Of a stretch of 64,000 nucleotides of DNA, positions 6,023-46,835 are shown in pieces; within the stretch, counting starts at the first letter, position 1, and every line of letters starts with the position of its first letter. The position numbers and the translations under genes are program-made. The notes under the pieces were generated by a model. That model was not told the DNA's origin. It did not search any database and was given only the letters and a program-made list of their open reading frames with translations. This DNA is from Octopus vulgaris. Its lineage: Eukaryota. The stretch spans positions 10,106,001 through 10,170,000 of the forward strand of contig OX597825.1 in assembly GCA_951406725.2 (NCBI GenBank). Direction: 5' to 3'.

Positions 6023-6067
6023 GGCTGAAATATCTTTAGGCAAAATTCTGAAAAAGAAAAACTGGAG
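6023..6067 (+). CDS. KCNAB: Kv-beta coding exon 2 (in window)
   Basis: tttttcag|G...TGGAG|gtaagg; 45 nt, phase 2-2; (K)AEISLGKILKKKNW(R). Confidence 0.95.
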
Positions 6068-7565: not shown

Positions 7566-7610
7566 ACGTTCCAGTTATATTATATCAACCAAGATTCATT
7601 GGAGTGCCAA
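7566..7610 (+). CDS. KCNAB: Kv-beta coding exon 3
   Basis: tttctag|A...GCCAA|gtaagt; 45 nt; (R)RSSYIISTKIHWSA(N), containing the catalytic Lys (STK). Confidence 0.95.
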
Positions 7611-12572: not shown

Positions 12573-12619
12573 TCGTGCCGAAACAGAAAAAGGCCTCTCT
12601 CGTAAACATATCATTGAAG
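12573..12619 (+). CDS. KCNAB: Kv-beta coding exon 4
   Basis: ttctccag|T...GAAG|gtagag; 47 nt; (N)RAETEKGLSRKHIIE(G). Confidence 0.95.
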
Positions 12620-15455: not shown

Positions 15456-15542
15456 GTTTGAAAGGATCACTAGATCGTCTGCAGCTATCTTATGTTGATA
15501 TAGTTTTTGCCAATAAACCCAGTGCACAAACACCAATGGAAG
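15456..15542 (+). CDS. KCNAB: Kv-beta coding exon 5
   Basis: cccacag|GT...GAAG|gtaagt; 87 nt, phase 1-1; (G)LKGSLDRLQLSYVDIVFANKPSAQTPME, with the Kv-beta-typical Asn (FAN) at the AKR His position. Confidence 0.96.
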
Positions 15543-32128: not shown

Positions 32129-32214
32129 AAATCGTCCGTGCCTTCACTTTTGTCATCAATCAGGGTTGGGCTATGTACTGGGGTACCTCCCGTTGGACGC
32201 CCACAGAGATCATG
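32129..32214 (+). CDS. KCNAB: Kv-beta coding exon 6
   Basis: gtttccag|AA...ATG|gtaagc; 86 nt; (E)[28 protein letters not shown]. Confidence 0.96.
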
Positions 32215-35094: not shown

Positions 35095-35215
35095 GAAAGT
35101 TATGCTGTGGCACGCCAGTTCAACCTGATCCCACCAACTGCTGAACAAGCTGAATATAACATGTTTCATCGAGATAAAGTTGAGCTTCACATGCATGAGA
35201 TCTACACTAAAATTG
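35095..35215 (+). CDS. KCNAB: Kv-beta coding exon 7
   Basis: gtgtag|GAA...ATTG|gtaaag; 121 nt; [40 protein letters not shown](G). Confidence 0.96.
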
Positions 35216-37113: not shown

Positions 37114-37208
37114 GCGTTGGAACAATTTGCTGGTCCCCATTAGCATCAGGAATTCTTTCAGGGAAGTATGACGATGGAGTACCGATCTATTCTCGTGCTG
37201 CCCTAAAG
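37114..37208 (+). CDS. KCNAB: Kv-beta coding exon 8
   Basis: cttttag|GC...AAG|gtaggt; 95 nt; (G)[36 protein letters not shown]-binding WSPLA motif. Confidence 0.96.
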
Positions 37209-39413: not shown

Positions 39414-39534
39414 AATTACGGATGGCTGAAAGATAAAATTCTCAGTGAGGAGGGCCGCAAACAGCAAGCACGTCTAAGAGAAGTGGCAGTCGTTGCTGAT
39501 AGATTAGGTTGCTCATTAGCTCAACTGGCAATAG
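39414..39534 (+). CDS. KCNAB: Kv-beta coding exon 9
   Basis: ctctgcag|AAT...ATAG|gtaaga; 121 nt; [40 protein letters not shown](A). Confidence 0.96.
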
Positions 39535-40757: not shown

Positions 40758-40846
40758 CCTGGTGTCTGAGACAGGAAGCCATTCATTGTGTTTTACTTGG
40801 AGCTACATCAGTTGACCAACTTTATGAAAATCTCCAAGCTCTGCAG
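40758..40846 (+). CDS. KCNAB: Kv-beta coding exon 10
   Basis: atttcag|CC...CAG|gtattt; 89 nt; (A)WCLRQEAIHCVLLGATSVDQLYENLQALQ. Confidence 0.95.
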
Positions 40847-43131: not shown

Positions 43132-43579
43132 TTAATGATATATCATCATCGTTTAGCGTCCGCTTTCCATACTAGCATGGGTTGGACAGTTCAACTAGGG
43201 TCTGGGAAGCCAGAAGGTTGCACCAGGCCCAGTCTGATCTGGCAATGTTTCTACGGCTGGATGCCCTTCCTAACGCCAACCACTCTGTGAGTGTAGTGGA
43301 TGCTTTTTACGTACCACCGGCACAGGGGCCAAACGAGCCTGGCAAACGGCCACGATCGGATGGTGCTTTTTACGTGCCACTGGCACGGGGGCCAGGCTAG
43401 GATGGCAACAGCCACGAACGGATAGTACTTTTTACGTGCCACTGGCACGAGGCCAGTCGGGGCGGCGCTGGCAACGACACAAGGTTTATTAATATTCATA
43501 ATAGATGTTTAATATTACTCATTATTACATTCCTTAAGTGACCTTCTCTCACCACACTCTGTTTGTTTTTCTATTACAG

Positions 43580-43672
43580 TATGTTCCAAAACTAACACCA
43601 TCATTGATGAATGAATTGGACAAATTACTTGGCAACAAACCTCTTTCACGCAAGGAGCATCCACCCAGGTGA
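43580..43672 (+). CDS. KCNAB: Kv-beta terminal coding exon, up to first stop (TGA)
   Basis: attacag|TAT; YVPKLTPSLMNELDKLLGNKPLSRKEHPPR*. Aligns by eye with the Kv-beta2 C-terminus ([29 protein letters not shown]). The 11 exons sum to 909 nt = 302 aa + stop. Confidence 0.95.
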   Translation, partial: YVPKLTPSLMNELDKLLGNKPLSRKEHPPR

Positions 43673-43879
43673 CTAGACTTGGATAGGGCGGCTGGAGGGG
43701 GTGGTAGTGGCAGCGGAACCGCTGCCGGTGCCGCTGCCGGGAGCTCAGCTAACGCTGGCACTTCAGGACAATCCGGCAGCAGCAGTGGTGCCACCACCAC
43801 CCACCACGTCAGCCACATGCCCTCACGACATGCCCACCACCATAACGATGCAGCACCACCTCCATGTTCTATCCAGTAG
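43673..43879 (+). CDS. KCNAB: Predicted stop-codon readthrough extension (68 codons after the UGA) ending in CaaX CSIQ
   Basis: TGA-CTAG context. In-frame LDLDRAAGGGGSGSGTAAGAAAGSSANAGTSGQSGSSSGATTTHHVSHMPSRHAHHHNDAAPPPCSIQ-TAG, followed by ACT-TAG. Confidence 0.75.
   Translation, partial: LDLDRAAGGGGSGSGTAAGAAAGSSANAGTSGQSGSSSGATTTHHVSHMPSRHAHHHNDAAPPPCSIQ
43679..43876 (+). promoter_or_regulatory. Putative readthrough-stimulating long-range RNA stem
   Basis: 43679-43703 pairs with 43854-43876: 12 bp (4 G-U), 2-nt bulge, 6 bp, 1 mismatch, 4 bp. Confidence 0.65.
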
Positions 43880-43945
43880 ACTTAGATATATATATATCAT
43901 AGCATTGTCGCTCCTCCATGAACCGTCACCTCTTCCACTGCCATC

Positions 43946-44230
43946 ATCACCACCACCACCACCACCACCACCACCACTACCACTGCCAACGCCACCACCT
44001 CCACCACCACCACCGCCACCACCATGCCACCACCACCACCATGCCATCATCATCATTTCCATTGCCTCTGAGAAACAGAAAAGGAAACAAATCCAAGCCT
44101 GTACCCCAGCTCCCCCCCCCCCAGCGCATGCATTCTCATTGTTATAGACATAGCAGTCAACATTGTTGTTGTTGTTACTGCTACTACAACTGTTGTTGTT
44201 GTTGTTGATGATGACATTATTGTTGTTGTT

Positions 44231-44266
<36 letters not shown>

Positions 44267-44267
44267 A
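43946..44267. repeat. (CCA)n and (TTG)n tracts in the proximal 3' UTR
   Basis: Direct reading. Confidence 0.9.
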
Positions 44268-45169
44268 TCAAATGAGGTGCTAGGGTGAAGAATTGAGCAG
44301 AAATGGCAGAGTTCCAAACTAAATGATTTTTTGCAGAAAATATTTAGTTTTACACCTTCTGCATAATTTCTAACTCCTGATAAAAAACGAAGTCGATTTG
44401 ATCTATTATACCATGGGATTATCAAATTACATACAGTCATACGCTGAGGGCAGGGGTACTTGATTCAGATATTTGCCCTTCTCTACAAATAAGTTTTTGT
44501 AAACAAATCTAAGAAATTTATTTGGCAGAAACAAAAAATTAAATTTCTTGAAATATTTAATTAAATCTGTTTTATTTTTCTGAATTCAACTCTTAACAAA
44601 ACTGGATGTTATTCTATAATGATGATAACAGTCAAGTCTATAGAATCTAAATTTATTTACAACCTTCACTTATTTAAAGATATCTCATGATCAGGGTTTA
44701 GAGGATTAAATCGACTTCTCCCCACATATTCCAAATTAATGTCCTTGTGCTTATTTCTTAATTATTTAATTATTTAATCATGCCACCAATAAATGCATGA
44801 TATATATACATATTAGTTTAACCATTTCAGTTAAGTCTTGGTTTGTATTTGATTTAAATAGCAATTGCTATTCTGATCTCTTTGTAAGCAGATGAATAAG
44901 GGGGCACTTATCTTCTGGAAAGTGGCTAATCAGCTATAAAACATATCCAAATAATCTCCTTTATTTTTCTGTGTACAAAGAGAATAACATGATTTATGTA
45001 CATTTGTTTAATTTCTCCAGCACAGATATTTTATAAACTGTAGGCAACTACATTAAATTTATCTGAGATTTTTTCTAATACATACTGTTTGAATATAAAA
45101 TATTTATTATTTTATTTTATTTTTATCATTATTTCTTTTTGTAATCTTATTTTAGTGTGTGTTTTTTTT

Positions 45170-45540
45170 ACTGCACGACTGAGTACAACTCCATATTCCT
45201 CGGGTGTATGAAGTATTTTGCTTTAGTTTCATGTTTTCTGTTTTTTACACAGAATTCTTCACAATATGTGTGCAGTGTCTAGTTGCACTATTTTCTGTAT
45301 ATTGTTCATATTTGTAAGTTATAGGGTTTGGGGTATACATTTACCAGTATATATTTCTTTTTTTCATCATTCTCAAAACACCTATAATTACAGGGGGTCC
45401 CTTTTATAACCACAAGGGTTTCCTTCTGTTTTCAGTCCCCATGCTCCGTTATCTCAATTTCCAGATATTTATATCGACATAATTTCTGATTCATTTACAC
45501 CTTCATCGTTAGCAGTTGGAAATTGAGTCTTTAATTAAGG
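45170..45540 (-). mobile_element. RLE-type (R4/Dong-like) LINE 3' relic
   Basis: Minus strand ...KLCRYKYLEIEIT../WGLK.../IQKIVQLDTAHIL*RIL, like the K..KY..L..E...W and QK...LGTAHILR motifs of RLE LINE C-termini. Confidence 0.65.
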
Positions 45541-45592
45541 TAACATTAATATTCTGATTGTTGTTGTTGTTATTACCATTATTATTATTATG

Positions 45593-45630
<38 letters not shown>

Positions 45631-46070
45631 TAAGGCGGCAAGCTGGCAGAATCATTAGCACGCCGGGCAAAATGCTTAGCGGTATTTCACCCGTCGCTAC
45701 GTTCTGAGTTCAAATTCCGCCGAGGTCAGCTTTGCCTTTCATCCTTTCAGGGTCGATAAATTAAGTACCAGTTGCATACTGGGGTCAATCTAATTGACTG
45801 GCCCCCTCCCCCAAAATTTCAAGCCTTGTGCCTAGAGTAGAAAAGAATATATTTATTTACTAAGGCAGCAAGCTGGCAGAAATGTTAGCACACTGGGCAA
45901 AATGCTTAGTGGTTTTTCACCCATCGCTATATTCTGAGTTCAAATTCTGCCAAGGCCGACTTTGCCTTTCATTCTTTCGGGATTGATAAATTAAGGACCA
46001 GTGAAAGACTGGGGTCGATGTAATTGACTGGTCCCCTCCCGCAAAACTTCAGGCCTTGTGCCTAGAGTTG

Positions 46071-46101
<31 letters not shown>

Positions 46102-46835
46102 GCAACAGTAGCAGTATTTCATCTGATTTTACATTCTTAGTTCAAATTCTGCTGAGGTCAATTTGCGTTTCATCCTCCCAGGGTCAATAAAATGAGTACC
46201 ACTTGATCACTGGGGTTGAAGTAATCAACTTACCCCACCCCTCAAAATTGCTGGCCTTAAGCCAAAATTTGAAATCATCATCATCATCTTCATCATCATC
46301 TTCATCATCATCATCATCATCATCATCATTATTATTACTATTATTATTATCATCATCATCATTGTAGCAAGGTGGCAGAATCGTTAGCACGCCAGGCAAA
46401 ATATTCAGCAGCATTTTGTTCGCCTTTGCGTTCTGAGTTCAAATCCCATTGAGGTCAACTTTGCCTTTCATCCTTTCAGGGTTGATAATGTGAGTACCAG
46501 TCATGTACTGGGGGGTTGATGTAATTGACTTACCTCACTCCAAAATTGCTGGCCTTTTACCAAAATTTGAAGCCATTATTATTATTATTGAAAATCGGTA
46601 GAGCACCAAAGAAACAAAATGCTTTGAGGAATTTTAACTTCACTGTTTTGATTTCAAGTCCCAACAGTGTTAACTTTGCCTTTCATCCTTGTTGTATCAA
46701 GAAAAAAAAGATACCAGTTATACACTGAGGTTGATTTAATCAACTCTACTCCTCCATCGCCCTTTCTGGGTTGTTCCAACATTATTATTTTGTCTATTAT
46801 GAAAGACTCTTGAATAGTTCTTAATTACCAGTTTA

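Follow-up and report, generated by a model that had tools for sequence, protein, structure and literature searches.

Candidate stop-codon readthrough adding a CaaX end to octopus Kv-beta at a UGA located within a splice donor

The Kv-beta gene and its alternative 3' ends

We analyzed a window of 64,000 nucleotides from Octopus vulgaris (assembly GCA_951406725.2, contig OX597825.1, positions 10,106,001 to 10,170,000, forward strand). The window contains 11 coding exons of a Kv-beta gene between positions 2372 and 43672, with AG/GT at every junction; the gene starts upstream of the window. The spliced window exons are identical to the Kv-beta of O. sinensis (P0011/P0008) at 302 of 302 residues, and structures of rat Kv-beta2 matched at 3e-156 over residues 6-334, which places the protein in the Kv-beta (AKR6) family. 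The coding exons and the donor at the end of the last one are as follows.

2372-2451, 6023-6067, 7566-7610, 12573-12619 and 15456-15542, + strand: first five of the ten upstream Kv-beta coding exons (AG/GT junctions, identity to O. sinensis)
32129-32214, 35095-35215, 37114-37208, 39414-39534 and 40758-40846, + strand: the other five upstream coding exons (same evidence)
43580-43669, + strand: last exon shared by every isoform (YVPK...EHPPR), preceded by ...ttacag; its end is 43668 when spliced on
43666-43674, + strand: alternative 5' splice donor CAG/GTGACT, containing TGA; acceptors at G000:C12:10170253 and 10182083
43670-43672, + strand: UGA stop of the unspliced isoform and candidate readthrough codon; O. 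bimaculoides isoform X2 and a Sepia pharaonis model end with PPR here

The exons at 6023-6067, 7566-7610 and 12573-12619 are very short (45-47 nt), and the annotated isoforms vary by one residue there. Elsewhere in the genome, on the minus strand of G000:C4:145874353-145875464, lies a fragment of a different aldo-keto reductase (44% to Kv-beta), which is not a Kv-beta retrocopy; the adjoining frames resemble a retrotransposon protease region.

The sequence-only reading of this DNA did not mention that the TGA occupies positions +2 to +4 in a splice donor that is in use. Among the 11 donors of the gene in the window, CAG/GTGACT stands alone in combining a G at +3 with a C at +5; the other ten have A at +3 in every case and G at +5 in seven. 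These two departing bases are exactly those that turn UAA-G into UGA-C. The stop alone tells little, because a phase-2 donor of the form AG/GTRA always leaves an in-frame stop.

In contigs assembled from the sequencing runs X13 and X18, the exon ending at 40846 is spliced to the one that starts at 43580, and the contigs stop at 43669. The X18 contigs have two loose ends at 43669, each of which was placed beyond the downstream edge of the window and next to a proper acceptor, where exons 20.6 and 32.4 kb away supply other Kv-beta C-termini. A 38-nt cassette exon (G000:C12:10170253-10170290) gives PPR-SQKYLN, an end not present in the proteins retrieved, and the exon at G000:C12:10182083 gives PPR-VINNP...EHE. 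The cassette carries a GTAAGT donor of its own and soon reaches a stop codon, and onward splicing from it could trigger nonsense-mediated decay.

The gene thus has three or more alternative 3' ends, of which PPR-TGA is one, and in most annotated octopus isoforms the TGA is removed by splicing. In the main annotated cluster, which spans Octopus species and Argonauta, 7 to 8 of the 8 proteins have the spliced VINNP end, as do 7 of the 13 in a decapod-like cluster; another five of these 13, Logan proteins ending with PPR, were left out as evidence for the stop, their contigs breaking at the branch point. Annotated forms ending with PPR exist in O. bimaculoides (isoform X2) and Sepia pharaonis. 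Since the TGA is spliced out elsewhere, readthrough can act on the unspliced form only. Scallops and Gigantopelta also vary their C-termini after the same Arg, and Owenia and several clams terminate at it.

Part of the stretch is contained in 20 of 24 sequencing-run rows, for which the kind of run is guessed or unknown and none is recorded as RNA. Four runs were assembled, one of them empty, and no contig bridged 43670-43687; the contig filter drops some contigs, and the runs are therefore uninformative on editing or on the unspliced share. A contig of run X20 covering 43687-43891 carried a single substitution (43836 A>T, depth 2), which would replace His by Leu.

The open extension, its octopus orthologue and the predicted RNA fold

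Beyond the stop, the frame stays open into the intron. The features of this extension, all on the + strand, are as follows.

43673-43676, + strand: CUAG readthrough context (motif defined in PMC4132726)
43673-43876, + strand: 68-codon extension, Gly/Ser/Ala-rich and then His-rich, with no folded family; in frame in O. bimaculoides P0026
43680-43711, + strand: 5' arm of the predicted stem (basal 43680-43689, inner 43690-43711), with pair probabilities mostly 0.75-0.99 in the fold of 43673-43879
43790-43814, + strand: 3' arm of the predicted inner stem, codons ATTTHHVSH, stable with 3' ends up to 43940
43865-43876, + strand: CSIQ codons TGT TCT ATC CAG, forming the CaaX box and, at 43866-43875, the 3' arm of the basal stem
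43877-43885, + strand: TAG ACT TAG, comprising the second stop (43877-43879) and an in-frame back-up stop (43883-43885)
44538, 44560 and 44705 (ATTAAA) and 44788 (AATAAA), + strand: candidate polyadenylation signals of the unspliced form; such hexamers are frequent in AT-rich DNA

The order PPR-TGA-CTAG, 68 open codons, CSIQ-TAG and a second TAG, as originally read, was confirmed in full, as was the GC-richness of the extension within AT-rich DNA (63% GC versus 37% for the window). A content of 63% was reached by one of 1276 sliding windows of 204 nt. The stretch is single-copy in the genome, which rules out a repeat or transposon origin. A phmmer search of 1.84 billion representatives gave no match to the extension, and the ESM Atlas gave none at 0.9 or more. 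Scans for DNA of relatives returned 3 of 106 candidates in metagenomes, all bacterial chance matches, 0 of 50 in viruses, and 1 of 79 in prokaryote genomes, again a chance match. The presumed 3' UTR further holds CAC and GTT/TGT microsatellites at 43940-44060 and 44165-44270.

TGA followed by CTAG occurs at 2 of the 2553 TGA triplets in the window, one of which is the Kv-beta stop, and 35 of 5140 stop-to-stop segments have a CaaX-like end. Frames of at least 68 open codons make up 237 of 7184 segments in the window. When the extension itself was dinucleotide-shuffled 20000 times, however, 4101 of the shuffles (about 20%) were open too, which makes the open frame alone weak evidence. By rough arithmetic, the TGA-CTAG context and a CaaX end could coincide by chance about once per few genomes, and the case therefore depends on comparisons. 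Taken alone, the octopus genome is suggestive, short of decisive.

The O. bimaculoides model A0A0L8G026 (P0026) carries the extension, with 58 of 63 residues identical, 39 consecutive residues unchanged, one frame-keeping insertion of two codons, and CSIQ retained. P0026 is the single informative mollusc comparison and stands at the protein level, as an automatic gene model; TGA-CTAG itself was observed only among the species grouped with that of the window. One sign of the automatic origin is residues 1-106 of P0026, which resemble a Tc1/mariner transposase piece, seemingly fused on by the gene predictor. A single-sequence AlphaFold model of P0026 had a pLDDT of 35 and was unusable. Among the non-arthropod spiralian proteins, P0026 is the only one with a CaaX end (1 of 64).

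P0026 apparently skips the stop by treating 18 nt bounded by GT and AG (43669-43686) as an intron, and a real micro-intron of this kind would remove the stop and yield PPR-AAGG, as P0026 has it. However, the 18 nt hold no pyrimidine tract and are far under the usual minimum for an animal spliceosomal intron. Gene predictors often skip a stop in a coding-like stretch by means of a tiny intron, and we consider true splicing here very unlikely. The extension could also be a relic, in which ancestral readthrough signals persist while the CaaX function, displaced by new downstream exons, decays. The many alternative exons that molluscs carry after the same Arg and the five amino-acid changes between the two octopuses fit such a decay. 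The 39 consecutive unchanged residues, the unchanged CSIQ, the kept frame and the optimal context do not, and we regard a relic as quite improbable.

The extension is predicted to fold into a stem whose basal part (43680-43689/43866-43875) begins 7-8 nt past the UGA. The fold energy of 43673-43879 was below that of 150 of 150 dinucleotide shuffles (z -3.05; z -3.8 for 43680-43830) and of 298 of 300 synonymous permutations, and three of three flanking controls were unremarkable. The stem depends on the folding window: adding upstream sequence replaces the basal stem by a hairpin that spans the donor, and when sequence from 44000 onward is included, the 5' arm pairs with the CAC repeats instead. 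An Rfam search gave only a chance snoRNA match. The six-pair hairpin (43665-43670/43677-43682) would cover the GTGACT donor and rivals the basal stem, a possible switch between splicing and readthrough. The tail, previously described as a Gly/Ser/Ala linker with a His-rich patch, is of low complexity; its stretches of Gly and of Thr/His form, in part at least, the two arms of the predicted RNA stem and do not act as a protein linker alone.

In P0026, the five substitutions and the insertion are all confined to codons with loose pairing, which make up 22 of the 63 (p=0.004, with the changes clustered and not independent). The stem is therefore supported, but the conservation, including that of CSIQ, could be explained by RNA constraint alone. 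The conserved element might accordingly be an intronic RNA structure that tunes a weak donor or recruits ADAR, the frame and CSIQ being by-products of a GC-rich stem. The TGA does lie within a used donor that the small hairpin could hide, the changes in P0026 avoid paired codons in five of five cases, the CSIQ codons pair with the 5' arm, and a fifth of the shuffled extensions are open. Such a structure leaves unexplained the CUAG, the position of the CaaX box in frame and immediately ahead of two stops, and the insertion of a multiple of three nucleotides, as well as the C-x-x-Q tails and the readthrough at the same position in arthropods (see below), and we judge it unlikely as the whole explanation.

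A-to-I editing of the UGA to UGI (Trp) would likewise make the extension, with the stem as the ADAR substrate. Recoding by A-to-I editing is abundant in coleoid cephalopods, and a long double-stranded region is predicted next to the stop. However, the A of the UGA is predicted to lie outside any base pair, and the G on its 5' side is unfavourable for this editing. Editing would have no need of CUAG, and the fly and mosquito examples are catalogued as readthrough, which makes editing quite unlikely in our view.

The fold has known counterparts. In type-II readthrough (alphavirus nsP3 and Drosophila kelch), as described in PMC3159437, UGA-CUA is followed by a basal stem of ~10 bp over a long foldable region, as predicted for octopus; the spacers of the alphavirus and kelch stems are 8-12 nt, and the stems raise readthrough up to ~tenfold. 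The 7-8 nt spacer of the predicted octopus stem can be likened to these. Unlike the type-II cases set out in that source, the predicted octopus 3' arm encodes the putative functional motif.

Hyperkinetic tails in arthropods and the CaaX box

The Kv-beta orthologues of flies and mosquitoes are already known as readthrough candidates. Jungreis 2016 (PMC5100048 Data S1) lists two of them as 'ancient', namely Drosophila Hk-RD, with TGA-C and 49 codons, and Anopheles AGAP010067-RA, with TGA-C, 45 codons and RNA structure. A preprint places Hk in tier 1, with reads spanning the stop at the junction LALR-TGA-CAA-TCA (PMC13278127, Table T3). The gene family, the UGA-C directly after the terminal Arg and an extension, of 45-49 codons in the two insects, are shared with octopus. 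The contexts differ (UGA-CAA-UCA in fly Hk versus UGA-CUAG in octopus), and the tails have no sequence likeness. In octopus, unlike in Hk, the UGA doubles as part of a splice donor that is in use, and the species falls outside Pancrustacea. The main texts of PMC5100048 and PMC13278127 give no CaaX role for Hk.

In Lepidoptera, 49 of 59 Hyperkinetic matches run on after TLAMR without a stop and end with C-x-[IVL]-Q; the query itself contained such a tail, and many isoforms are counted. With cluster members included, 69 of 81 lepidopteran proteins end in this way, mostly with tails of 40-53 residues, and most of the remaining ones have another long C-terminus or are partial models. At the fly stop position, the 59 orthologues have Asn in 58 cases and Ser in one. 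Within the box, a2 is always I, V or L and X is always Q, while a1 is any of six residues, and C-x-[IVL]-Q is kept even where the tail ceases to align. Such a pattern would be expected if the CaaX box were under selection, as judged from these proteins. The lepidopteran and octopus proteins share a low-complexity tail after the terminal Arg and a Q-type CaaX end; unlike in octopus, the lepidopteran tail is constitutive for its splice form, as Asn or Ser replaces the stop. We found no description of prenylation of lepidopteran Hyperkinetic in the literature searched. A second, longer basic lepidopteran C-terminus with a PAD[LVNP] end replaces the CaaX end in P0107, P0120, P0122-P0124 and P0133. 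CaaX use in Lepidoptera also seems to be switched by splicing.

The stop position in Lepidoptera bears on a further alternative, decoding of the UGA as selenocysteine. A UGA with a 3' stem is found in some selenoprotein genes (PMC3159437). However, no SECIS family matched in 43500-46500 at E<=1, and Cys stands at the stop position in 0 of the 59 lepidopteran orthologues, so that selenocysteine appears extremely unlikely.

CSIQ-TAG has the Cys at -4, an aliphatic a2, Q as X and a free C-terminus. The sequence-only reading compared it with the boxes of Rap2A (CNIQ), PRL-1 (CCIQ) and prelamin A (CSIM). CSIQ belongs to the experimental prenylation-positive training set for the yeast enzyme, and CSIQ, CEIQ and CDIQ are positive in four of four predictors, the control CRPQ being positive in three of four (PMC9231725). 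Yeast FTase takes many CXXX sequences (10.1101/2023.02.06.527295), and the CSIQ motif is therefore necessary but unspecific. No second membrane signal of the kind found in CaaX proteins with stable plasma-membrane targeting, a polybasic run or a palmitoylated Cys, accompanies it, with one basic residue in the last 20 and one Cys in the extension. The CaaX end claimed earlier is supported by CSIQ in P0026 and by the lepidopteran C-x-x-Q tails, while the farnesylation itself is predicted.

Lipid on a Kv-beta has a precedent in mammalian Kv-beta2.1, in which S-acylation directs the location in membrane domains (PMC9409123). The proposed octopus form would resemble it in carrying a membrane-directing lipid. 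Kv-beta2.1 differs in that, as described there, core cysteines are reversibly palmitoylated without recoding.

Proposed mechanism and significance

On the comparisons above, readthrough of the unspliced Kv-beta form, adding a 68-residue tail ending with CSIQ, is probably real (probability roughly 0.65). The readthrough first put forward for this gene is supported by P0026, by the listing of fly and mosquito Hk and by the predicted stem, but it would concern only one of at least three gene ends.

The C-terminus of Kv-beta would be chosen in two steps, by splicing and then by translation. When the donor is used, the transcript continues into the distant VINNP...EHE exon or the 38-nt SQKYLN cassette, as the observed splicing shows. 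When it is left unused, the exon would run into the intron and UGA would serve as the stop, for which an intronic poly(A) site would be required. UGA-CUAG and the stem 7-8 nt downstream would then help near-cognate decoding of the UGA, so that a few per cent of ribosomes would insert an amino acid and add the 68 residues. UGA-CUA alone gives 1.5% readthrough, and OPRL1 reaches ~31% in human cells (PMC4132726). The mammalian OPRK1, OPRL1, MAPK10 and AQP4 share UGA-CUAG with octopus, and those four needed no 3' structure in the experiments described in that paper.

Farnesyltransferase would modify the cysteine of CSIQ, as the motif data suggest. Given a single Cys, one basic residue among the last 20 of the tail and no second signal, the lipid would tether weakly, chiefly where Kv1/Shaker already keeps the Kv-beta tetramer near a membrane; alternatively, tethering may occur at the ER/Golgi during assembly. 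As Kv-beta is tetrameric, a readthrough of 5% would by simple arithmetic lipidate ~19% of tetramers. The scheme resembles the peroxisomal readthrough of LDHB and MDH1 (PMC4359377, PMC5100048) in that a hidden signal works only at the very C-terminus; the octopus signal is a prenylation box as opposed to the PTS1 of LDHB and MDH1.

The sequence-only reading knew of no description of such a protein. This claim has to be narrowed, since readthrough of the gene in flies and mosquitoes (Jungreis 2016) and the unmasking of a terminal signal by UGA-CUAG are already known. The part that stands is the CaaX: our literature search found no paper on a readthrough-made CaaX, on prenylated Kv-beta or Hyperkinetic, or on cephalopod readthrough, although subscription papers and supplements may hold some. 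CaaX and prenylation are unmentioned in the text of the readthrough papers PMC13170385, PMC5100048, PMC13278127 and 10.64898/2026.07.13.738141, whose supplements may differ. A mollusc case, the overlap of donor and stop and the stop-free lepidopteran tail were likewise not described in the literature searched.

Readthrough of Kv-beta is possibly as old as the protostomes. We tentatively propose, with slightly less than even confidence, that a readthrough-controlled farnesyl switch on Kv-beta goes back to the ancestor shared by arthropods, annelids and molluscs. While the tail sequence and stop context turned over, the UGA-C, the 3' stem and a C-x-[IVL]-Q end would have persisted. In lepidopterans, replacement of the stop would have made the tail permanent; in coleoid cephalopods, the same eight bases would have come under the control of splicing and would act as donor, stop and readthrough signal, with stem and CaaX sharing codons.

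If readthrough of the octopus gene holds true, prenylation would join the signals unmasked by readthrough, which so far are mainly peroxisomal. A single readthrough event would extend past Pancrustacea, thought to be the limit of abundant readthrough (PMC5100048), contrary to the view of most neuronal extensions as lineage-restricted. Kv-beta would furthermore possess an unrecognised lipid anchor, which would bear on the assembly and placement of Shaker/Kv1 channels in invertebrate neurons.
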